Shown here piece by piece: positions 1 through 10,183 of a stretch of 44,813 nucleotides of DNA. Source of the DNA: Candidatus Fimenecus sp. GTDB taxonomy: Bacteria > Bacillota > Clostridia > Oscillospirales > Acutalibacteraceae. The stretch is from NCBI GenBank assembly GCA_045534995.1, contig JAZSKT010000133.1, positions 1-44,813 of the forward strand, given 5' to 3'. The translations under genes and the position numbers were made by a program. The notes beneath the pieces are model-generated. The model searched no databases. It saw only the letters and a program-made list of their open reading frames with translations, and had not been told where the DNA came from. The first letter of the stretch is position 1. Every line of letters begins with the position of its first letter.

Positions 1-3000
1 GGTAGAGAAGATGGAAAAGTTGTAATTTATGGCGGAGCACAGCTTATGAATTACAACAGCACTGGCGCATTGTTTACTACAACTAACGGTACAGTTTCAA
101 GTCCTGCAAACACAAGTGTTATGACACTTTATAAGAACCCATCTTTAAGCGATATTACAATTCCTGCAGGTAAGATGGTGCTCTATTCTGCTCTTGTAGA
201 TGGTCTTGAATATAAACCAGGCACATATACAAAAACAAGCTATGAAGCATTGTTTAATGCACTTAAGGAAGGTTACGGAATTTATAAAGATGATAGTCAA
301 ACAGACAGCGCAACAATTACAGCGGCTGCTCAAAATATCAGAAATGCTATCGTTAACCTTGAAAAAGAAAGTTTCGATGTTGACTATCGTTCATTCCCAG
401 CAACACTTTATAAATTCGGTTATAACCCAGCTGCAAGTGGTGACACAAGATATTCAGCCGGTGGTGCAGCTTTCAATGCTCAGACATACGCTGAGATGGA
501 AGAAATAATCAGAGCTGATGAAAACCTTATGGAACAGATTAAGACTGTAATCGGCTATACCACAAGAACATGGAATAGTGGTCAGGCTGATGCAGCTCTT
601 GATACAGCAGTTACAGCTTATGCAGAGATTTATTCTCTTGCTTTCACCGGTAATTCATTATCATCAGGCGGTACAGATGTTTCTAACTTGCGAAACACTT
701 CTTGGAACGTATGGACAAAAACTGATACTACGGGTTCAGGCGAATCCAGTGATGGTGGCGCTTCTGTTCAAGGTATTTTCAGTACGATGCTTAACAATGG
801 CAATCCAACAGACCACGCTCCATATAGTGAATTGCCATATGGTAACATTGCAGATTATTTATCAGGTACTTATAATACTGCAAATGGTTTCTCAATTTCA
901 TTTGCCGATAGCAATTCATCAAATAATTCTGTTACACTTCCTGCACTTAAAGGTATAAGTGTTCACGTTAACGATATTTTCACAAGAGAAAATGTTCTTG
1001 TTGACGGTTCAACAACTAACTATTCAAAATACTATTGGGACTTTGACTTCCCATTCCTTACAACAACTAACAATTACGGTATCAATACATATAAATACTC
1101 AAGTAGTGATACAGATTACTTGTTCCAGGCTAAGTTTAATGATGAAAATCATACTGCGGAGGCACAGTTGACTGAAGGGTCCGGAAGCACTGGTTTCTTC
1201 CCATTTAACAATCAGTTGGATTCTAACTCTAACCCAAGTAGTTCTGTTTACCACTTCGGTATGAGCTTCTCAACAGACTTCTATATTCCTGTTTCGGGTA
1301 CATATTCAGATGGTGAGGATGTTGTATTCCGTTTCTCCGGTGACGATGACGTTCTTGTTTATGTTGATGATGTTCTCGTTCTTGATAACGGTGGTCTTCA
1401 CGCTGCACGTGAAGCAACTATCAACTTTACAAAGGCATCTGTAAACTATCAGTATGCAATAGACATAACTGAAGGAACAGTTAAGAATAAAACAGAATAC
1501 GGCACAACTTACACTTATGGTGCAAATGAAGAATACAATGGCGATATTCTTGCAGCACTTGAAAAGCTTAACGAAGTTCGTACAGACGGTGAATATCATA
1601 CTTTCACATTCTACTACCTTGAAAGAGGTTCAAATGAATCTAACTGTGAAATCGAATTCAATATCCAGCAGGCTTCTAACCACGTTCTTCTCTATGACGA
1701 AACATTGGTTGTTGACTATGGTCTTCCTGTTGAATACAACGTTAAAGCAAATGACAAGATGGACGAAATCCCAGGTCTTGGTTATAGTTACGAAGGTATA
1801 GTTAGGGCTAACAATGAGGTTGATTCAGTTGTTCTTTTCGATGAACCTACTGACCTTGTAAGTAGATTTGCTTCTGAAAATACTGTTCTTGATGTTCAAG
1901 GACTCAAGTACGGTACAGCAACAATGAGGGGTGACGGTCTCGTAACATATACTCCTAACACAATGAATATGACAGACAGAGATTATTTCTATACCTGTGC
2001 TGAGATTGAAGGAGACCCTACTTACACAAGAAATTATTATCAGTATGAACGTGCTGTCTTTATCCCTGCAACTACAGTCTACTATGAGGACAATTTTGGT
2101 GCAGATATAACCTTTAAGGATGGTTCTGGTGCGGCTAAGTGGACAACAGTTGGTGATTCAAATGTTTTTGCAGATGCAAAACAGGCTGCTGACCTTGTAG
2201 GCGACGTTATGGCAAATCCATACGGCTATGACCCGATTTATGCAGGTAATAATGCCGGTGATAATAAAGATTATACACAGTACAGCGGTTTCTCAGCACA
2301 GAAGGTAACTGTAAGTGCTGCGAATAATACAAAGAATGGCGGTACAAATCCAACAGTCGAATTCACATTTACAGGTACAGGCTTCGACATTATCAGTATG
2401 ACTGATAGCACAACAGGTACATTCTATGTTGACATCTTCGACGAAAACAACAATCAAGTTGGCAAGAAGATGGTAGTTGATACATACTACGGTTGTTCAT
2501 ACGGTCAGCTTTATGCGGATGCAAATGGTAAAGCAACTCTTGAAAATACGGGCAACCCACTTTACAAGAGTGCGGTAAATGAAGCTGTAACACCAAATCC
2601 TACATACCATTCTGCTGATGGAATAGGATATACAGAAACACCAACATATTACGATGCAAACGGTAATATTACTACAACAGAAACCGAAAATCCTGCATAT
2701 GCTTATGCATATGGTTGGGTAAATGCAGATAATGTTGAAGGTCTCTATCAGATTCCTGTAATCAAGAAGACAGGTCTTGACTATGGTACATATACAGTTG
2801 TAATCACTCCAATGTATTCAAAGTTGTTTGACAATACAGGAAAAGGACAGTTTGATGTTTACATCGATGCTATCCGTATTTATGACCCTGCAGGCAAGGA
2901 TGACAATATTGATTCATCAATCCTTACAGATTATAAGTATGATAACGAGTCCTATCCAAGCTATCTCACAATCAAGGATATGCTCATTGGTGCTGACTCA

Positions 3001-3732
3001 CTTTCAAAAGATTCAGCAACACAGGGTGTTGTATTTATCGACGGTATTGCTAAGCTTGATAACGACCTTGAAAAATACAAGTTGGCAGGTCCAAACAACG
3101 AACTTTACCTCGCAAAAGACTCAACAGCAGAAGGCCAGGCAGTTGCATTCGAGATTTGGGCAACCGCAATTCCTGATGAAGTTCAGCTTGGTGTAAAGAG
3201 TGTTAAGGGCAAGCCTACACTTGGCATCACATATGGTGATAACACAGTGAAGCAGGCAATCAATACTGCAACAGAAATGAATTACATTATTAACAACTTG
3301 CTTCCTGAAGATGGTAAACTTGAATGGTCAGAAGTTGTTGTTGATGGTGTACCATATTACAAAACTGATACTATTGTTATTCAGAACTTGTCTGATGACG
3401 CAAGCATCCTTTCTCTTACAAGCATGAAGTGGACATTTACAGGTGTTGGTCAGTACGGTCACTATGAAACACAAGCAACTGCAACTCCTGCTGTAATGTC
3501 ATTTATGTCAAGCAATGCTACTATAACCGATGCGTACACAATGATGGCATCAAATAATAATGCCGGAACAAATGAGGATATTAATGACGGCGGAGTAGAT
3601 ACTGAAATTATTCCTGGTGATGACGAGAATACAAATGATACTAACGACGAGTATCAGGAAGAGCTCACATTCATTCAGAGAATTATCAAAGCAATCACAA
3701 ACTTCTTCAAGAAGATTTTTGGATTAGCTTAA
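1..3732 (+). CDS. Large secreted/surface protein with a fibro-slime/PA14-like domain (5' end outside window)
   Basis: Frame 1 is open from base 1 (GREDGKVVIYGGAQL precedes the first Met), so the gene is 5'-truncated. The block FFPFN...FRFSGDDDVLVYVDDVLVLDNGGLH...YHTFTFYYLERGSNESN matches the fibro-slime/PA14 beta-sandwich signature. Composition is T/N/S/Y/G-rich. The C-terminus has an acidic stretch followed by an amphipathic tail, LTFIQRIIKAITNFFKKIFGLA. Confidence 0.8.
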   Translation, partial: GREDGKVVIYGGAQLMNYNSTGALFTTTNGTVSSPANTSVMTLYKNPSLSDITIPAGKMVLYSALVDGLEYKPGTYTKTSYEALFNALKEGYGIYKDDSQTDSATITAAAQNIRNAIVNLEKESFDVDYRSFPATLYKFGYNPAASGDTRYSAGGAAFNAQTYAEMEEIIRADENLMEQIKTVIGYTTRTWNSGQADAALDTAVTAYAEIYSLAFTGNSLSSGGTDVSNLRNTSWNVWTKTDTTGSGESSDGGASVQGIFSTMLNNGNPTDHAPYSELPYGNIADYLSGTYNTANGFSISFADSNSSNNSVTLPALKGISVHVNDIFTRENVLVDGSTTNYSKYYWDFDFPFLTTTNNYGINTYKYSSSDTDYLFQAKFNDENHTAEAQLTEGSGSTGFFPFNNQLDSNSNPSSSVYHFGMSFSTDFYIPVSGTYSDGEDVVFRFSGDDDVLVYVDDVLVLDNGGLHAAREATINFTKASVNYQYAIDITEGTVKNKTEYGTTYTYGANEEYNGDILAALEKLNEVRTDGEYHTFTFYYLERGSNESNCEIEFNIQQASNHVLLYDETLVVDYGLPVEYNVKANDKMDEIPGLGYSYEGIVRANNEVDSVVLFDEPTDLVSRFASENTVLDVQGLKYGTATMRGDGLVTYTPNTMNMTDRDYFYTCAEIEGDPTYTRNYYQYERAVFIPATTVYYEDNFGADITFKDGSGAAKWTTVGDSNVFADAKQAADLVGDVMANPYGYDPIYAGNNAGDNKDYTQYSGFSAQKVTVSAANNTKNGGTNPTVEFTFTGTGFDIISMTDSTTGTFYVDIFDENNNQVGKKMVVDTYYGCSYGQLYADANGKATLENTGNPLYKSAVNEAVTPNPTYHSADGIGYTETPTYYDANGNITTTETENPAYAYAYGWVNADNVEGLYQIPVIKKTGLDYGTYTVVITPMYSKLFDNTGKGQFDVYIDAIRIYDPAGKDDNIDSSILTDYKYDNESYPSYLTIKDMLIGADSLSKDSATQGVVFIDGIAKLDNDLEKYKLAGPNNELYLAKDSTAEGQAVAFEIWATAIPDEVQLGVKSVKGKPTLGITYGDNTVKQAINTATEMNYIINNLLPEDGKLEWSEVVVDGVPYYKTDTIVIQNLSDDASILSLTSMKWTFTGVGQYGHYETQATATPAVMSFMSSNATITDAYTMMASNNNAGTNEDINDGGVDTEIIPGDDENTNDTNDEYQEELTFIQRIIKAITNFFKKIFGLA

Positions 3733-3754
3733 AGTTGGAAGGAGGATACGAACA

Positions 3755-3997
3755 ATGAAAAAGACTTATGTTAAACCGCAAATTGCATATGAATCATTCC
3801 AACTTTCAACAAGTATTGCTGCAAACTGTGCACTGTTAGGTTCGGTATCGGCTCAGTATATTTGTCCGGTATATGACGAAGAAGTAGGTTTAAACTATTT
3901 TGCAGACAGTACGGCACTTTGTGATGTCGTTCCAGCAAATGGAATGACCCCTTGCTATGATGTTCCTTCAGAAAACTGGATGGTATTCTCATCATAA
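3755..3997 (+). CDS. 80-aa cysteine-bearing small protein; candidate RiPP precursor peptide
   Basis: Strong RBS GGAAGGAGGA at 3737-3746, 8 nt before the ATG. It has four Cys (C25, C37, C56, C67), no signal peptide and no TM segment. It sits directly upstream of the rSAM/SPASM + PqqD operon and is followed by a stable hairpin. Confidence 0.6.
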   Translation: MKKTYVKPQIAYESFQLSTSIAANCALLGSVSAQYICPVYDEEVGLNYFADSTALCDVVPANGMTPCYDVPSENWMVFSS

Positions 3998-4010
3998 ATA
4001 AAAAAATATA

Positions 4011-4049
4011 ACGGAGTTCGTCATAGCGATGGTGAACTCCGTTGCTTTT
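4011..4049 (+). terminator. Stable hairpin (partial terminator/attenuator) after the small peptide gene
   Basis: ACGGAGTTCGTCAT-AGCG-ATGGTGAACTCCGT forms a 14-bp stem (two G-U pairs) with a tetraloop, followed by TGCTTTTA, a short U-tract. No obvious promoter lies before the next gene at 4061. Confidence 0.55.
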
Positions 4050-4060
4050 AGGATTAGATT

Positions 4061-4837
4061 ATGAAACTTTATAAAAAGATTATTGTGGCTTTTTTGTGCA
4101 TTCTTACTGTTGCGGGACTTTGTGCCTGTAATAAAAATGATACTACAAATAATGATGTTGTTACAAACAATGATATTGTTACAAATAATGATGATGCCAC
4201 AAATAAAGATGTTGCTTCAAAAGAAGAAACAACAAATAAAATTCCTGTTATCACTGAAGAAGTTAAAGTGGAACAGGTTTCTGAATTTGAAGCAAAAGAA
4301 TCAAAAGACTCTCAAATCGGCATTACCGTTGACAGCTGGCTTAAAATCATCAGTATCGGTGAAAAAGATGGTGTTCTCAGTGTTTTTGTAAGAAACAATT
4401 CCAATGAGGACATTCAATATGCTCTTTTAAGTGTTATGACAGGTGATGGCAGGGCGGAATTTCCGATTTCTACACTAACGGCGGGTGCAAGTGCTACTCT
4501 CCGTTGTAATAATGGTTATGTTTTTAACGAGAATGCCGTTTATTATGGCTGGAAAGTTGAAGACAAGGCGATTTTTAAAGAAGAACTTTCTTGCTATCCT
4601 GATATTTTTGAAATTGACGGTGTTGACGGATTTATTTTAATTAAAAATATTTCCAAGAAGGATATTGAAGGAAAAATCTATATTTACTATAAAAATGTTA
4701 CTGACGGAGTTTATGATGATGGTGTAACATACAGAGCGTATGTTGATGGTCTTAAAAAAGGCGAAAGGGCACAGATTAAGACTCAACATTATTTAAAGGA
4801 CTCAAGTCGTATTATGTTCGTGACCTATGCAGAGTAA
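4061..4837 (+). CDS. Lipoprotein of unknown function with a repeat linker
   Basis: The N-terminus MKLYKKIIVAFLCILTVAGLCAC has a signal peptide plus a lipobox-like L-C-A-C. This is followed by four 6-aa repeats (TNNDVV/TNNDIV/TNNDDA/TNKDVA) and then a ~190-aa beta-rich domain. RBS AGGA lies 7 nt upstream. Confidence 0.75.
   Translation: MKLYKKIIVAFLCILTVAGLCACNKNDTTNNDVVTNNDIVTNNDDATNKDVASKEETTNKIPVITEEVKVEQVSEFEAKESKDSQIGITVDSWLKIISIGEKDGVLSVFVRNNSNEDIQYALLSVMTGDGRAEFPISTLTAGASATLRCNNGYVFNENAVYYGWKVEDKAIFKEELSCYPDIFEIDGVDGFILIKNISKKDIEGKIYIYYKNVTDGVYDDGVTYRAYVDGLKKGERAQIKTQHYLKDSSRIMFVTYAE
4145..4216 (+). repeat. 4 x 18-bp in-frame tandem repeat inside the lipoprotein gene
   Basis: ACAAATAATGATGTTGTT / ACAAACAATGATATTGTT / ACAAATAATGATGATGCC / ACAAATAAAGATGTTGCT, read directly from the sequence. 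Confidence 0.8.
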
Positions 4838-5663
4838 AAAATACAAGTTTTTTGATACTGTTATTCAGGTTTTAACTCCTGAAGAAATTGTTGATATAGA
4901 ACCTTATATCAATTTTTTAAGTGAGGAAGAACCTGATTGCACTATTACATTTGAATATGTGACACAACTGCCCGAATTAGCTGAAAATGTTACTACTGAC
5001 AGCGAAATCAGTTTTGCAACTGACGGTGATAGGAGTATGTGCTGGTATAAAAATCACGGTAAAGAAGGTTATTTTGCTTGCCGTATTTTTGATGGCGAAA
5101 ATTATCGTGTTCAGGTACTTGAGGAATATCGTGGTAAACTTTGGAACGGTATTATATTTAACCTTTTAGGCTTTGAGGAGATTATTGCGAAGCATAACGG
5201 TGTTGTTTTACATGCTTCTGCAGTATTGAAAAACGGAAAAATGATTCTTTTTACTGCTCCTTGTGGCACAGGTAAGTCAACTCAGGCTGATTTGTGGGAA
5301 AAATATGCAAATGCTGAAATCGTTAATGGCGACAAGGCTCTTGTAGGTTTAAAGGATGAACTGATTTTTGCAGGTGGACTTCCTTTTTCAGGCTCATCTA
5401 ACATTTGCAAGAATATTTCAGCACCTTTGGTTGCTATTGTGTGTCTTGGTCAGGCAAAAGAAAATTTAATCAGAAAAATAAGTGCAAAGGAAGCTTTTGT
5501 TGCATTGTTACAAGGGAATTATCGTTCAGGGATAACAAAGGCATCCTCGCAGATAACAATAGATGTATTAGAAAAAATCTGCAGTGAAGTTCCTGTGTAC
5601 AGACTTGATTGTCTGCCGGATAAAACAGCAGTTGAATGTCTTGAAAAGGAGTTGGGAATATGA
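4827..5663 (+). CDS. HPr kinase C-terminal-domain-like P-loop protein (HprK-related)
   Basis: HASAVLKNGKMILFTAPCGTGKSTQADLW resembles the HprK/P catalytic-domain pattern H-G-x-x-V...G-x-S-G-x-GKS-x-x-A-x-x-L. The start overlaps the lipoprotein stop by 11 nt, and the stop overlaps the rSAM start (ATGA). Confidence 0.7.
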   Translation: MQSKKYKFFDTVIQVLTPEEIVDIEPYINFLSEEEPDCTITFEYVTQLPELAENVTTDSEISFATDGDRSMCWYKNHGKEGYFACRIFDGENYRVQVLEEYRGKLWNGIIFNLLGFEEIIAKHNGVVLHASAVLKNGKMILFTAPCGTGKSTQADLWEKYANAEIVNGDKALVGLKDELIFAGGLPFSGSSNICKNISAPLVAIVCLGQAKENLIRKISAKEAFVALLQGNYRSGITKASSQITIDVLEKICSEVPVYRLDCLPDKTAVECLEKELGI

Positions 5664-6724
5664 GCTCAGAACCAAAATTATCAGCATATCTCCACTCAAA
5701 GGCGATTAGAATGGAATTGCCTGTTTCAGGCACTTTTGAATTGACTTCCCGATGTAATTTCCGCTGTGAGATGTGTTATGTTCACGACGAATGTCACAGT
5801 AGCGATAAGCTTTCAACAGAACAATGGTTAAGTATTGCGGAAGACGTTAAAAAAGCAGGTACACTTTTCCTGTTGCTTACAGGTGGTGAGCCTCTTCTTC
5901 GCGAGGATTTTCCTTATTTGTACACAGAACTTAAAAAAATGGGCTTTATGGTGTCTATTAACACTAACGGAAGTCTGTTACATAAGTATTTTGATTTGTT
6001 CAAAAAATATCCTCCTTCAAGAGTGAATATTTCTCTTTATGGTGCTGATGATGAAGCTTATGAAAAGCTTTGTAAGACAAAAGCCTTTTCACAGGTGTTG
6101 GACAATGTAAAAAAACTTAAGGAAATGGGAATTTCAGTTAAGTTTAATACTGTTTTCACAAACAGAAACAGCCATCAGTATAAGGAAATAATAGATATTG
6201 CTGAATCACTTGATGTCCCATTAAGCACAACTGCATATGCTTATCCTCAGGTGCGTCTTGATAAGGATTTCGGTGACAATTCAGGCAGAATGTCACCTTT
6301 TGAAGCGGCTCAATGTACGATTAATTGCGAAAAATACCGTTTCCGTAATGGCGATTTTTCAGAAAGAGCAAAAAAAATTCTCGAGGAATCCAATGATGAA
6401 AAATGCGACAGAGTTTCTTGTCGTGCAGGTAGAGCAGCATATTGGATAACAAGTGAAGGCATTATGCAAGCTTGCGGAATGTTACCTAAAATACAGATAA
6501 ATGTCCTTGAAGAGGGCTTTGAAAAAGCTTGGAAACAGTTGGTTGCAGAGGTAAAAGAGATTCGTTTGCCGAAAAAATGTGTGAACTGTAAATATTCAAA
6601 TATATGTCACGCGTGTGCTGCGATGTGCTATACTGAAACAGGATATTTTGATAGTGTACCTGATTATGTTTGTCAAATGAGTAAAAATATTTATGAATTG
6701 ACCGAGAAAGAGCAAGGTGAATAA
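5660..6724 (+). CDS. Radical SAM enzyme with a C-terminal SPASM domain (peptide-modifying type)
   Basis: CNFRCEMC is a CxxxCxxC motif at residues ~32-39, followed by GGEPLL. The C-terminal auxiliary-cluster motifs are CRAGRAAYWITSEGIMQACG and CVNCKYSNICHACAAMC. RBS AAAAGGAG lies 8 nt upstream. There is no N-terminal RRE domain. Confidence 0.9.
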   Translation: MSSEPKLSAYLHSKAIRMELPVSGTFELTSRCNFRCEMCYVHDECHSSDKLSTEQWLSIAEDVKKAGTLFLLLTGGEPLLREDFPYLYTELKKMGFMVSINTNGSLLHKYFDLFKKYPPSRVNISLYGADDEAYEKLCKTKAFSQVLDNVKKLKEMGISVKFNTVFTNRNSHQYKEIIDIAESLDVPLSTTAYAYPQVRLDKDFGDNSGRMSPFEAAQCTINCEKYRFRNGDFSERAKKILEESNDEKCDRVSCRAGRAAYWITSEGIMQACGMLPKIQINVLEEGFEKAWKQLVAEVKEIRLPKKCVNCKYSNICHACAAMCYTETGYFDSVPDYVCQMSKNIYELTEKEQGE

Positions 6725-6725
6725 A

Positions 6726-6989
6726 ATGCAGATAAAAAAAGAAATGATACTTCGTGAAATTGCAGGCGAGAATATTCTCGTTCCCGGCGCTGATGCTGTC
6801 CTTGACCTTAACGGACTTTTCGTTATAACAGAAACAGGCGCATTTATATGGAAACTTCTTCCTGAAGTGGAATCGGAAACAGAAATCCTCGATAAAATGT
6901 TGGAAGAATACGAAATCGACAGGGAAACTGCACAAAAAGATATTGCAGAATTTCTTGAAAGATTAAGAAAATTCGGAATAATCGACTAA
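6726..6989 (+). CDS. PqqD-family peptide chaperone (discrete RRE)
   Basis: The 87-aa protein has EIAGENILVP...LNGLFVITETGAFIWKLL...EILDKMLEEYEID...AQKDIAEFLERLRKFGII, a typical PqqD size and pattern. RBS AAGGTGA lies 5 nt before ATG 6726. An in-frame GTG at 6717 is an alternative start. The gene overlaps the rSAM stop. Confidence 0.8.
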   Translation: MQIKKEMILREIAGENILVPGADAVLDLNGLFVITETGAFIWKLLPEVESETEILDKMLEEYEIDRETAQKDIAEFLERLRKFGIID

Positions 6990-6995
6990 ATGAAA

Positions 6996-7032
6996 AAAGG
7001 ACAAAGTTTCAAAAACCTTGTCCTCCTTTTTT
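6996..7032. terminator. Bidirectional terminator between convergent genes
   Basis: AAAAAAGGACAAAG-loop-CTTGTCCTCCTTTTTT has A/T tracts on both sides. It lies between the PqqD stop (6989) and the oxidoreductase stop (7040). Confidence 0.6.
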
Positions 7033-7039
7033 GCTGATA

Positions 7040-8368
7040 TCAATGTTTAAAGCAGTTGTTATATTCGTTAACCCAGCGCAAAACGGTTTTACGATTATAT
7101 GTATTAGGCATTGCAGCAGTTACGGCAGTTGCTCTTGCTAACTGCAATCCCATTTTAACAACTTTACCGAGAATGACCTTATTATTGATAAGACCGTTAA
7201 GTTTGACTTTAATGTCGTCTATTGACATTCCTCCCAACATTGCACCAAGACTTGTGGAATCAGCATCAATTGTCATATCCTCTGCATTGAGAATTCCCTT
7301 TGCGAAAATGTAATCAAGTTCAGGACCTTCAAGTCGTGTAAGCAACAGCTTGACACAAGCAAGGGGTGCTAAAGCAGCGCCGATTTCTTTGTAGAAATTC
7401 TTTTGATATGTCCAGAGCGTCTCTGCACTAAATGAACTGCTAAAATCACTTGAAACAGCATCTGCGAGGATTTTAGCAGCTTTCAAGGAGTTTGCAATAC
7501 CTGAACCAATAACAGGAACTGTCATAAATGCGCTGTCGCCAATTGCGGCATATCCGTCAGCAACAAGAACACCCAAAGGCTGACGAACAGGAATATTGGC
7601 AAAACTGTCGCCACGGACAATTTCCGTTCCGATACTTGGATTTGATTCTCTCATTTTGTTAATTTGGTCAATTGCATAATCACGGTCAAACTTATGAAAT
7701 CTTCCGATAAGAACATCTGTATGTTCCTCTTCGGTTGCAATCCATGAAATACCCAACTCATTGTTCGGAAGGAGAATCAATTTGAATTTGTCTTTTTCTT
7801 CTACTTCAGCAGCTTTGTTAAAGAAAGCTCTGTAAACATAAAACTGCTCATATTCAATAGGTGAGTTTTGAATTCCCATTGATGATGGCAACGCACGTCT
7901 TACAGGAGAGTTAAGACCACAAGCGTCAATAACAAGGTCGGCAAGATATTCGCCCTTGTCAGTTTTGATACCCACAACTCTGTTGCCAAAGAGAATTGGC
8001 TTTTCAATATTTTCTTCGTATTGGAATTTAACGCCTGCCTTTTCAGCGTGTTCAATCAGGTGAGCGTAAATATCACTACGCTCCATCTGAATTTCCTTTT
8101 TATCTTCTTCAGTATTCTGTGTAAGTGCTGTTTCCATGGCAGGACCATAAAATGTCATATCCTGTTTTAATTTGTATTTGCTTTTATCAGGAATGGGAAT
8201 ACCAACAGCCGTCCAGCCTTTTTTATCAAAAATATCTGTCCAGTCATAGCCCATTTTATCTTTAGCATTTCTTTCGTATACAGTTACATCATAACCTCTT
8301 TTTGTAAGTAACATAGCTGTGGCAATACCGCCATGTCCGCCACCGGCAACAATAATCTTATTTCCCAT
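7040..8368 (-). CDS. FAD-dependent oxidoreductase (geranylgeranyl-reductase/FixC-like family)
   Basis: MGNKIIVAGGGHGGIATAMLLTKRGYDVTVYERN is a GxGxxG dinucleotide-binding fold, and DACG...R and GD..A motifs follow. I chose the second Met because AAGAGGG lies 7 nt upstream of it; the ORF-track start at 8389 has no RBS. Confidence 0.85.
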   Translation of the reverse strand: MGNKIIVAGGGHGGIATAMLLTKRGYDVTVYERNAKDKMGYDWTDIFDKKGWTAVGIPIPDKSKYKLKQDMTFYGPAMETALTQNTEEDKKEIQMERSDIYAHLIEHAEKAGVKFQYEENIEKPILFGNRVVGIKTDKGEYLADLVIDACGLNSPVRRALPSSMGIQNSPIEYEQFYVYRAFFNKAAEVEEKDKFKLILLPNNELGISWIATEEEHTDVLIGRFHKFDRDYAIDQINKMRESNPSIGTEIVRGDSFANIPVRQPLGVLVADGYAAIGDSAFMTVPVIGSGIANSLKAAKILADAVSSDFSSSFSAETLWTYQKNFYKEIGAALAPLACVKLLLTRLEGPELDYIFAKGILNAEDMTIDADSTSLGAMLGGMSIDDIKVKLNGLINNKVILGKVVKMGLQLARATAVTAAMPNTYNRKTVLRWVNEYNNCFKH

Positions 8369-8433
8369 AAAAAACCCTCTTTTCAACATTTTTTTACATT
8401 TCTGTACATTATAAAAATTATACCATAAAACAC

Positions 8434-8463
8434 TTGCATTATCAATAAACTAAATGATATAAT
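8434..8463 (+). promoter_or_regulatory. Putative sigma-A promoter for the acyl-CoA ligase gene
   Basis: TTGCAT, an 18-bp spacer, then TGATATAAT (extended -10), about 75 nt upstream of the ATG at 8540. Confidence 0.4.
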
Positions 8464-8539
8464 CTGTAATATAAAATGGGTAAGTATTGAATTAAATAAA
8501 AAACACCTACAATAGGTGACGAAAAGGAAACAATCAATT

Positions 8540-10183
8540 ATGAAGAAAACACACAAAAACGCAGTTAAGGTTGAAATACCTGAGTACCAGACAATACGTG
8601 AAATTGTTTTTGAAGGAACAGCGCGTGGTGGCGATAAAAAGCAATTTATGTTCCTTGACAGAAACAAGGAGCTTCAGGAACTCAATTATAACCAGACTTT
8701 TTACAGAATCAGAACACTCAGTACATATTTTTACAGCAAAGGGTTAAACGGTGGTAAAAAAATTGCTATCGTTTCTGAGAATCTTATTGATTGGGGTATG
8801 GCATACTATGCTATTATTGTAGGCGGTAATATTTGTGTGCCAATGGATGCAAAACTGCCATATGAAGATATTGAAGACCAGATTATACGTTGCGATTGCG
8901 ATGGTGTAGTTTATTCTAAAAAATTTGCAAAATTTGTTGAACAGATTAAGGCTAATCCCGATGTTCCTGAAATGGAATATTTCTTTATGGATGAGTTCGA
9001 CACCTATTATGCTGAAGGCGAAAAAATGATTGATGACGGTGATGATACATTTGATAAGATTGAGATTAAACCGGATGATTTAGCTGCTATCGTTTTCACA
9101 TCAGGAACAACAGGTAAGAGTAAGGGTGTTATGCTTACTCACAAGAATGTTGCAAGTAACTGTTCTGCATCGTTAAGAGTGTTAACAGGGCGCCATGCGA
9201 TTGCTTTTCTTCCGTTGCACCATACTCTCTCATGGGTTAGTGGCATTTATGCTTCATATATTGTTTCTGAATGGGGTTATCTTTGTGACAGTCTTAAAGA
9301 TATTCAGAGAGACATTAAGAAATTTCAGCCATACAACTTTACAGGTGTTCCACTTGTTGTAGAAACAGTTTATGACAGAATCTGGAAAACAGCACGTAAA
9401 ATGGGCAAGGAAGATTTGCTCAAAAAGGGAATTAAAATCAGTAATGTGCTTATGAAATTCGGTATCGATAAGCGTCGTAAGATTTTTAAAATGGTACATG
9501 ATAATCTTGGTGGAAACTTGGATATGATTATCTGTGGCGGTGCTTATCTTGACCCGAAATACGAAAAAGGACTTTATGATATTGGCATTGACGTTTTCAA
9601 TGGTTATGGACTGACAGAGTGTTCTCCTGTTATTACATGTAATCATCCGGCAAAGTTTAAATTCGGTAGTGTTGGTACTCCGCTTGATTGTAATGAAATT
9701 AAAATTGTTAACCCTGATGAAGATGGCGTTGGCGAAATCTATGTAAGAGGTTCAAACGTTATGGTTGGTTATTATAACGACCCTGAAGCAACTGCGAAAG
9801 CATTTGATGGTGATTGGTTCAAGACAGGCGACTTCGGCAGAATTGATGAAGATGGTTTCCTCTTTATGGTGGGCAGAAAGAAGAATCTTATTATTCTTTC
9901 AAACGGTAAGAATGTATCCCCTGAAGAAATTGAAGAAAAACTTTTGAGTACAATTCCTTACGTTAAGGAAGTTCTTGTTTATCAGGAAGGTGGCAAAATT
10001 CTGGGTGAATTCTTCCTTAATGAAGAAGATTATCCGGGCTGCAGAGATACCCTTGATGCGGATGTTAAGAAAACAAATGCTTTGATGCCTGCTTTTAAAC
10101 GTGTAAGTAAGATTGTTGTGCGTGATGAGGAATTTCCAAAGACAACAACAATGAAAATTGCAAGAAAATATCATACAAACTAA
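8540..10183 (+). CDS. AMP-dependent synthetase / long-chain acyl-CoA ligase
   Basis: Adenylate-forming motifs are present: FTSGTTGKSKGVMLTH, GYGLTEC, WFKTGDFGRIDEDGFLFMVGRKKNLI and SNGKNVSPEEIE. I chose ATG 8540 (RBS AAAAGGAAA) over the upstream GTG at 8516. Confidence 0.9.
   Translation: MKKTHKNAVKVEIPEYQTIREIVFEGTARGGDKKQFMFLDRNKELQELNYNQTFYRIRTLSTYFYSKGLNGGKKIAIVSENLIDWGMAYYAIIVGGNICVPMDAKLPYEDIEDQIIRCDCDGVVYSKKFAKFVEQIKANPDVPEMEYFFMDEFDTYYAEGEKMIDDGDDTFDKIEIKPDDLAAIVFTSGTTGKSKGVMLTHKNVASNCSASLRVLTGRHAIAFLPLHHTLSWVSGIYASYIVSEWGYLCDSLKDIQRDIKKFQPYNFTGVPLVVETVYDRIWKTARKMGKEDLLKKGIKISNVLMKFGIDKRRKIFKMVHDNLGGNLDMIICGGAYLDPKYEKGLYDIGIDVFNGYGLTECSPVITCNHPAKFKFGSVGTPLDCNEIKIVNPDEDGVGEIYVRGSNVMVGYYNDPEATAKAFDGDWFKTGDFGRIDEDGFLFMVGRKKNLIILSNGKNVSPEEIEEKLLSTIPYVKEVLVYQEGGKILGEFFLNEEDYPGCRDTLDADVKKTNALMPAFKRVSKIVVRDEEFPKTTTMKIARKYHTN

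Follow-up and report, generated by a model that had tools for sequence, protein, structure and literature searches.

The stretch of DNA analysed here, referred to as the window, comprises 44,813 nucleotides (nt) of Candidatus Fimenecus sp. (contig JAZSKT010000133.1 of GenBank assembly GCA_045534995.1). It opens inside a gene for a giant secreted protein, which is followed on the same strand by a gene for a peptide of 80 amino acids (aa) with four Cys residues, and then by genes for a lipoprotein, a protein resembling HPr kinase (HprK), a radical S-adenosylmethionine (rSAM) enzyme with a SPASM-like set of Cys residues, and a discrete PqqD-family recognition element (RRE) of the kind associated with RiPPs (peptides that ribosomes make and that are modified after translation). 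A first-pass annotation, made from the letters alone, had singled out the small peptide as a putative substrate of the rSAM and PqqD proteins. The peptide gene is real, and the 80-residue open reading frame (ORF) is probably the ribosomal precursor of the cassette that follows it, most likely cross-linked by thioethers via its Cys residues and probably phosphorylated. The features of the locus are as follows (E, expectation value; dG, folding free energy).

1-3732, + strand: giant secreted protein, 3' part of the gene (1243 codons, with the 5' end lying outside the window; Pfam PA14, E=1.2e-7)
3740-3745, + strand: Shine-Dalgarno sequence AGGAGG, 9 nt 5' of the ATG (read from the sequence)
3755-3997, + strand: putative precursor-peptide gene, 80 codons plus stop (homologues, third-position substitution bias)
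3755-3826, + strand: leader-like region, residues 1-24, basic (column counts, n=150)
3767-3784, + strand: Y5-V-K-P8-Q-I10, a YxxPx[L/V/I] motif and predicted PqqD contact (column counts)
3827-3955, + strand: acidic variable core with four Cys codons (Cys25 3827-3829, Cys37 3863-3865, Cys56 3920-3922, Cys67 3953-3955)
3953-3994, + strand: fixed-length C-terminal module C-Y-[HD]-[VI]-P-x5-[VLI]-F-x-S, residues 67-80 (column counts)
4010-4050, + strand: stem-loop of ~16 bp, dG ~-20 kcal/mol, then a short U run, between the peptide and lipoprotein genes (RNAfold)
4061-4837, + strand: lipoprotein with signal peptide and lipobox Cys (tblastn synteny, alignment)
4827-5663, + strand: HprK-like P-loop protein, 278 aa, predicted peptide Ser kinase (AlphaFold2, Foldseek, invariant motifs)
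5660-6724, + strand: rSAM/SPASM enzyme, 354 aa (PF04055, E=7.8e-30), N-terminal RRE domain absent
6717-6989, + strand: discrete PqqD-family RRE, 90 aa (PF05402, E=3.2e-17)

The peptide gene and its family

Translation of 3755-3997 on the + strand exactly reproduces the 80-residue sequence given in the first-pass annotation, with Cys at positions 25, 37, 56 and 67 and the spacing of 11/18/10 residues that had been listed there. Ribosome-binding sites of the GGAGG type occur at the equivalent place in other loci. A word-indexed search returned 31 close homologues (77-82 aa, 49-86% identity), and a phmmer run that was exhaustive over 1.84 billion cluster representatives returned 241 clusters (50% identity) at E<=1e-3, nearly all of them 74-90 aa long and aligned from the first residue to the last. 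When the first 25 codons were compared with those of 23 loci, substitutions at codon positions 1, 2 and 3 numbered 87, 84 and 243, respectively. Such a split points to purifying selection acting on the + frame; as the substitutions track that frame, the antisense ORF at 3771-3995 (- strand) is ruled out as the true gene. The ORF at 3755-3997 is a real gene. At E<=0.1 the peptide has no match among the Pfam and NCBIfam models, neither the peptide nor any homologue was found in the protein Atlas, and a literature search with word strings from the peptide returned nothing relevant. Fused forms were absent among longer proteins (196-2000 aa), which is weak evidence.

Column counts were made over the window peptide and 149 representatives that are mutually ~50% identical or less (n=150). 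The mean frequency of the most common residue is 0.67 in the leader, 0.30 in the middle of the peptide (Cys left out) and 0.57 in the C-terminal module, so the pattern that the first-pass annotation had proposed looking for among homologues (conserved leader, variable core, invariant Cys) is indeed what the family displays. Residues 1-24 follow the consensus M-K-K-x-Y-x-K-P-x-[IVL]-x-F-E-[SDN]-F-x-L-S-x-[SN]-I-A-x-x. The KKxYxKPxIxxExF N-terminus, earlier described as leader-like, proves strongly conserved (Y5 in 150/150, P8 in 149/150 and F15 in 139/150, with I, V, L or M at position 10 in 144/150), and the distance from Met1 to the first Cys is exactly 24 residues in 118 of 143 sequences. 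Cys25, Cys37, Cys56 and Cys67 are kept in 150, 144, 149 and 149 of the 150 (96-100%), while the loops between them vary in length across the family (9-18, 9-49 and 5-19 residues). From the first Cys to the C-terminus, acidic residues (D+E, 13.4%) outnumber basic ones (K+R, 3.3%). The peptide ends in a module of fixed length (Y68 in 145, P71 in 137, F78 in 138 and S80 in 148 of the 150), with 13 residues between the fourth Cys and the end in 125 of 143 sequences. Ser is the final residue in 138 of the 150 (codon at 3992-3994 in the window). F49 is kept in 132, no position holds a conserved Trp, and position 75 is variable.

Two further remarks of the first-pass annotation concern motifs within the peptide. 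The absence of a double-glycine or other cleavage motif is borne out, none being conserved in the family. The description of Cys residues followed by acidic or small residues holds loosely; such a context is fixed only at the fourth Cys (C-Y-[HD]-[VI]-P) and does not extend to the others, and the contexts it had put forward for thioether acceptors (e.g., C-P-V-Y-D-E-E) are not conserved family-wide. The YxxPx[IVL] motif, the C-terminal Ser, the 14-residue tail module and the link to the giant protein go beyond what the first-pass annotation had noted. The possibility that the peptide begins with a Sec or lipoprotein signal, I-A-A-x-C being the lipobox, was considered and rejected, since residues 9-20 hold E13 and polar residues, a hydrophobic h-region is absent, and N or D frequently occupies position -1. 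AlphaFold2, given the 150-sequence alignment, returned a mean predicted local distance difference test (pLDDT) of 60 and a predicted template modelling score (pTM) of 0.29, with the best confidence over residues 1-10. The peptide is thus not predicted to fold alone, which fits a substrate and argues against a stable mini-protein.

Conservation of the cassette

When GTDB species genomes were searched with back-translated peptide motifs, 29 loci emerged, hosted by uncultured gut and rumen Clostridia (Candidatus Fimenecus, Oscillospiraceae, Lachnospiraceae bins, and others). According to tblastn, the gene order giant protein, peptide, lipoprotein, HprK-like protein, rSAM, PqqD is present in essentially all 29, and it holds down to 33% peptide identity (including the loci at 33-40%). 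The rSAM gene adjoins the peptide in 25 of the 29, which agrees with the first-pass proposal that the peptide is a substrate of the rSAM/PqqD pair. The signs that had been named there as pointing to an unrelated small protein, i.e., homologues without conserved Cys or without rSAM/PqqD neighbours, were looked for and are not what characterizes the family. Among the four loci lacking an adjoining rSAM gene, L014 and L016 leave their contig, and L017, which consists of giant gene and peptide only, is the one true exception. In the L017 genome (G001), another contig carries a further peptide together with the lipoprotein, rSAM and PqqD genes, and the HprK-like gene stands alone on yet another contig, so that the parts of the cassette are kept together at the genome level. 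Other departures from the common order are L021, in which PqqD lies upstream, the lipoprotein is absent and the giant gene lies ~3 kb downstream of the cassette, and L023 and L024, in which the lipoprotein is missing.

The peptide was found in 6 of 150 genera sampled from the same taxonomic family, whereas a congeneric species whose genome is 99% complete gave no sign of it, a distribution that indicates a patchy accessory trait. In five of the six sampled genomes that bear the peptide, a full-length HprK-like gene with a high score is present as well. The peptide occurs once in the window's own genome. Divergent peptides with a Y-x-x-P-x-I start and a C-terminal Ser, with different cores containing 4-5 Cys, occur at L036 (G150:C7, ~6300-6530) and L037 (G055:C4, ~6370-6590, - strand), and no cassette genes were found near them within the DNA examined. 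In G055 a relative of the giant protein lies upstream of the peptide, and both G150 and G055 carry HprK-like genes on other contigs.

The recognition protein and the leader motif

The PqqD protein has as its top NCBIfam match lasso_PqqD_Bac, the family of lasso-peptide PqqD chaperones of Bacillota, and its closest relatives in the PDB are TbiB1 (5v1u, E 1e-6), LppB (9x8z chain B), TfuB1 (6jx3) and PbaB1 (9x90 chain B), all of which are stand-alone RREs crystallised with leader peptides. Structures and mutagenesis have shown that discrete RREs of lasso and linear polyphosphorylated peptide (LPP) clusters read a [Y/W]xxPx[L/V/I/F/A] leader motif; the Tyr of the leader is hydrogen-bonded by D70 of LppB, in which F74 divides two hydrophobic pockets (PMC13381572). 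In a HMMER alignment these residues correspond to D75 and F79 of the window's PqqD (the numbering of the 9x8z chain is shifted by 18 relative to the published LppB numbering), and among the cassette PqqDs D75 is conserved in 21/21 and F79 in 19/21. Because the PqqD protein is an RRE of the lasso/LPP type with both D75 and F79, the leader segment Y5-x-x-P8-x-[IVL]10 is its expected ligand. Judged from these sequence correspondences, the motif is the strongest single argument that residues 1-24 would act as a leader in the mechanistic sense.

The radical SAM/SPASM enzyme

The rSAM protein carries C32-x3-C36-x2-C39 and, further on, Cys at 254, 272, 307, 310, 316, 319 and 338, all of them invariant in 27 orthologues. 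The seven C-terminal Cys fit the SPASM pattern, and the Pfam SPASM model leaves the protein unmatched at E<=0.1. It lies under the cut-off of every NCBIfam model. Scores against models of peptide maturases (MftC, GeoRSP, PqqE, ScmE, StsB, AlbA, SkfB, WgkB) are 61-83 bits, and those against the thioether synthases compare with their cut-offs as 67/850 for AlbA, 65/300 for SkfB and 68/625 for StsB. SkfB is the top sequence match in the PDB (E 9e-15), and PADLOC gave rSAM-generic (viperin) matches only. These family scores do not reveal which bond the enzyme makes. With four near-invariant Cys in a variable acidic core, thioether cross-linking is the most economical guess.

The HprK-like protein and the terminal Ser

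AlphaFold2 models the HprK-like protein with a pLDDT of 91.6, and Foldseek places this model with ATP-PEPCK and HprK/P structures (1kkl, 1jb1, 2qmh; probability 1.0, E 1e-5 to 1e-7). In 23 orthologues H129, the Walker A motif G147-x-G-K-S-T152, N167-G-D169, G189 and S191 are invariant. Matches to NCBIfam are weak (HprK_rel_A, TIGR04352, 21 bits against a cut-off of 200; ScmC, TIGR04249, 20 against 125), and sequence searches of the PDB with the single sequence, a profile and a sub-region gave P-loop-level matches only (E 0.37). Homologues of HPr kinase encoded in lasso clusters phosphorylate the precursor at its C-terminal Ser, on the side chain, sometimes repeatedly and with little regard for the remaining peptide sequence (PMC8498205), and LppK phosphorylates Ser3 of the LPP core (PMC13381572). 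Since the terminal Ser is the only Ser in the peptide that is more than 95% conserved, Ser80 is, by analogy, the likely phosphorylation target.

Genes related to the HprK-like protein also occur in other settings. Adjacent HprK-like and rSAM genes were seen at L039 (G075:C11, 7996-9938) and L040 (G087:C3, 7927-9857), with 37-42% identity to those of the window over the aligned parts; the HprK-like match spans only the C-terminal ~150-170 residues, the L040 pair lies amid pyrimidine-biosynthesis genes, and the family peptide, PqqD and the lipoprotein were undetected at both. The HprK-like and rSAM proteins may therefore form a unit that acts on other substrates. Contig C216 of the window's own genome (L041) encodes a shorter HprK-like paralogue of 239 aa (8058-8777, - strand; ScmC model, E 1.6e-12), accompanied by a PqqD of the lasso type (7802-8068), an ABC exporter resembling MsbA (6146-7786) and a Wzz/BY-kinase-type protein (4620-6092), all on the - strand. 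In its make-up this separate locus resembles the LPP-type toolkit that Popov et al. describe (PMC13381572); no precursor gene was identified there. The short paralogue is present in roughly a third of the sampled family genomes.

The giant secreted protein, the lipoprotein and transcription

The giant gene stops 22 nt before the start codon of the peptide, and in 28 of 29 loci the peptide gene directly follows an orthologue of it, L021 being the exception. Full-length relatives have 1700 to >2640 residues and Sec signal peptides (L001 2862-7973, L011 55-7977, L013 187-7980, L019 2646-7982). Their N-terminal catalytic domains differ, being GH2 in L011 and L013 and GH20 in L019, with none recognised in the closest relative, L001, while the C-terminal ~600 aa are common to all, as are a linker of acidic character and, at the extreme end, a short tail that is amphipathic and rich in aromatic residues. 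Differing catalytic domains with a common C-terminus indicate that the cassette travels with a C-terminal module fused to different glycosidases. The tails end in sequences of the ..FFKKIFGLA or ..GGWL..RWF type, no LPXTG or S-layer anchor was found in the giant proteins, and a signal for docking or sorting, tied to the cassette, may reside in the tail. The lipoprotein has a C-terminal domain of ~150 aa that is conserved in the cassette, and no relatives of it were found in Pfam or the PDB.

The giant protein and the lipoprotein are extracytoplasmic, yet the peptide has no signal sequence and the cassette no exporter. For this reason it is kept open, as a tentative and rather speculative reading, that the modified peptide is not a free antibiotic, signal or other secreted compound but a cross-linked, phosphorylated accessory subunit, plug or surface tether for the giant protein, acting with the lipoprotein.

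The giant and peptide genes are 20-30 nt apart across loci with no hairpin between them, and a hairpin (dG -16 to -29) follows the peptide stop codon in 22 of 23 loci (the window and 22 others, folded with RNAfold). The stem sequences of distant loci are unrelated, so that the structure and not the sequence is conserved. Operons of sactipeptides and ranthipeptides commonly have a partial terminator behind the precursor gene. The giant gene and the peptide are likely made together in excess, with the maturation genes expressed by read-through.

Three extra genes stand in or beside the cassette at L009 (11073-15013, between rSAM and PqqD) and L021 (2703-6442). One encodes a surface protein with Ig-like character and the other two encode Wzz plus P-loop (BY-kinase-like) proteins belonging to polysaccharide machinery of the capsule type, and by analogy with what is reported for LPP clusters they may hint at a link to surface polysaccharides. 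Downstream of the cassette, the window carries two further genes.

7040-8389, - strand: geranylgeranyl-reductase-like flavoprotein (FAD reductase), neighbour of the cassette
8516-10183, + strand: acyl-CoA ligase, neighbour of the cassette

Both were considered as members of the system and rejected. They are syntenic only in the close relatives L008, L009, L011, L012 and L026, and their absence from distant loci makes it probable that they adjoin the cassette without being related to it.

Comparison with known systems

Among the closest known systems are the LPP clusters of Bacillota (LppA/B/K/S; Popov et al., Nat Commun 2026, PMC13381572). Both systems occur in Bacillota and have a discrete PqqD-type RRE, a YxxPx[V/L/I] leader motif near the N-terminus, an HprK-like protein and long precursors (35-200 aa in LPP clusters). 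However, the cassette has no more of the LPP core set than the RRE and the HprK-like protein, the SipW-like SpI peptidase, the NTP-transferase and the MsbA-like exporter not being conserved, and unlike LPP clusters this cassette adds the rSAM/SPASM enzyme, the four Cys, the Ser-ending module, the lipoprotein and the giant secreted protein. The remainder of the LPP leader consensus (..VLxHQxIxFETxxS) is unmatched in register by the leader described here. The segment F-E-S (residues 12-14) was examined as a counterpart of the LPP 'FET' cleavage site and rejected, since it is six residues off register and position 14 is D or N in 43 of 150. The paeninodin and pseudomycoidin lasso clusters likewise rely on a stand-alone B1 RRE for reading [Y/W]xxPxL and on an HPr-kinase homologue for phosphorylating the C-terminal Ser (PMC8498205), the residue with which 138 of 150 members of this family end. 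In contrast to those clusters, a B2 cysteine protease and an Asn-synthetase-like cyclase were not found in the window cassette or the conserved locus families, the core is ~56 aa long with four Cys, and rSAM stands in the cyclase's place.

With the sactipeptide and ranthipeptide pathways (AlbA, SkfB, StsB) the cassette shares an rSAM/SPASM enzyme, a Cys-bearing precursor and RRE-guided recognition. It differs from them in that the RRE is a separate protein and not an N-terminal domain of the rSAM enzyme, the peptide is longer with its Cys spread over 43 residues, an HprK-like protein is present, and a protease and ABC exporter are absent; the rSAM enzyme also falls outside the curated thioether-synthase families (AlbA, SkfB, StsB), with 65-68 bits against cut-offs of 300-850. 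Another parallel is offered by QhpC, the gamma subunit of quinohemoprotein amine dehydrogenase, a small multi-Cys polypeptide that is cross-linked by the rSAM/SPASM enzyme QhpD and then becomes a subunit of a larger extracytoplasmic enzyme. The likeness would be one of logic, the peptide gene here being coupled to a giant secreted protein of enzyme type. However, QhpD is not among the 25 best-scoring families for the rSAM enzyme, and a QhpE-like protease and a QhpF-like exporter are absent. The peptide matched no QhpC-type model in Pfam or NCBIfam at E<=0.1, and whether these libraries hold such a model was not checked.

The same gene types (HprK-like, PqqD-like, rSAM/SPASM) are combined in the SynChlorMet (ScmC/D/E/F) and GeoRSP cassettes, which are NCBIfam definitions from comparative genomics only. 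Scores fall far below the cut-offs (ScmC 20/125, ScmD 19/100, ScmE 75/400, GeoRSP rSAM 80/400), and one rSAM is present here, not two. Literature searches found no paper in which a RiPP system pairs a radical SAM enzyme with an HprK-like protein, and nothing relevant on SynChlorMet, GeoRSP or HprK-related cassettes. By analogy, the system would be a hybrid of lasso/LPP-style recognition and probable Ser phosphorylation with cross-linking in the style of sactipeptides and ranthipeptides. It is a member of none of these classes.

Proposed pathway and alternative explanations

The peptide has the general features of a RiPP precursor, i.e., a small gene beside enzymes in conserved synteny, with a conserved leader and a variable core. 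In the proposed pathway, the hairpin would keep the peptide transcript, shared with the giant gene, in excess over the transcripts of the enzymes. The separate PqqD protein would bind Y5-x-x-P8-x-I10 of the leader (residues 1-24) in lasso/LPP fashion and present the acidic core to the rSAM/SPASM enzyme, which would most likely convert the four Cys to intramolecular thioethers, and the HprK-like protein would phosphorylate a Ser, most likely the C-terminal Ser80. The product would be a cross-linked, probably phosphorylated peptide of ~56-80 residues, with a role presumably tied to the giant glycosidase-type protein and the lipoprotein.

Several results weigh against this interpretation. The top NCBIfam scores of the rSAM enzyme are to SPASM enzymes of heme pathways (AhbD, 113 bits; NirJ), and outside the vicinity of the fourth Cys no residue is positionally conserved as a thioether acceptor. 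The resemblance of the HprK-like protein to HprK is at the level of fold and P-loop only; two genomes (G075, G087) have HprK-like and rSAM pairs without a detectable family peptide, and one (G109) retains the terminal Ser with the HprK-like gene on a separate contig. No protease or leader peptidase and no exporter or transporter is conserved among the loci. The conserved aromatic-x-x triplets leave room for a different chemistry on the same substrate, e.g., C-C cyclophane or ether cross-links at F49-x-[DES], Y68-[HD]-[VI] or F78-x-S80, with the Cys serving for disulfides, metal binding or another conversion. SPASM enzymes also form three-residue cyclophanes on aromatic-x-x motifs, and F49, Y68 and F78 (132, 145 and 138 of 150) are conserved about as well as the Cys; the unconserved acceptor position and the place of the rSAM enzyme in no thioether-synthase family would also be accounted for. 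Nevertheless, four Cys conserved at 96-100% in a variable core are the classic signature of Cys cross-linking, disulfides are unlikely in a signal-less peptide that remains in the reducing cytoplasm, and no result points specifically to cyclophane enzymes, so that a non-thioether chemistry is regarded as distinctly improbable.

A further alternative accepts modification of the peptide by the rSAM enzyme and denies that the HprK-like protein is a kinase of the C-terminal Ser. The protein would be an ATP-dependent scaffold or chaperone of the rSAM enzyme, or would phosphorylate another residue or substrate, and the terminal Ser would be kept on other grounds, e.g., because an F-x-S motif serves for recognition or cross-linking. 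The HprK-like and rSAM pairs without peptide or PqqD nearby fit such a division of roles, as does the assignment of kinase identity from fold and motifs only, and LppK itself acts on Ser3 of its core and not on a terminal Ser. The invariance of the His, Walker A and NGD residues speaks for a working kinase, however, and the single highly conserved Ser of the peptide is the terminal one, the very residue that the lasso-cluster homologues recognise with little regard for the rest; on balance this alternative seems unlikely, though it deserves somewhat more weight than a different cross-link chemistry. Least probable is that the peptide is an unmodified small Cys-rich structural or metal-binding protein, accessory to the giant protein, with a neighbourhood that reflects co-regulation only. 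Conservation over the full length, including the fixed C-terminal module, would suit such a protein, as would the position of the gene 20-30 nt behind the giant gene, with which it is probably co-transcribed, and the lack of an accompanying protease and exporter. Against it, AlphaFold2 found no fold despite 150 diverse sequences, the YxxPx[IVL] motif fits the ligand motif of the adjacent RRE type, the peptide lacks a signal peptide while the giant protein is secreted, and the rSAM, PqqD and HprK-like genes are kept with the peptide even when dispersed. A cross-linked, probably phosphorylated RiPP-type precursor thus remains the probable identity of the peptide.

Implications

Each part of the system has known counterparts, whether the discrete RRE for YxxP leaders, the peptide kinase resembling HprK or the cross-linking rSAM/SPASM enzyme. 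For their combination, and for the precursor family itself, no Pfam or NCBIfam match and no paper were found. The 241 clusters in gut and rumen Clostridia indicate an unexplored class of modified peptides in the microbiome, and the four Cys, the C-terminal Ser, and the leader motif with its cognate small binding protein make the proposals directly testable. The strict pairing with giant secreted proteins of glycosidase type, with no protease or exporter, hints at a role outside the usual bacteriocin scheme, which, if correct, would widen the known uses of RiPP-type machinery. Should the peptide prove to be an accessory subunit of the giant protein, a RiPP-type pathway would be building a surface enzyme complex in gut Clostridia.

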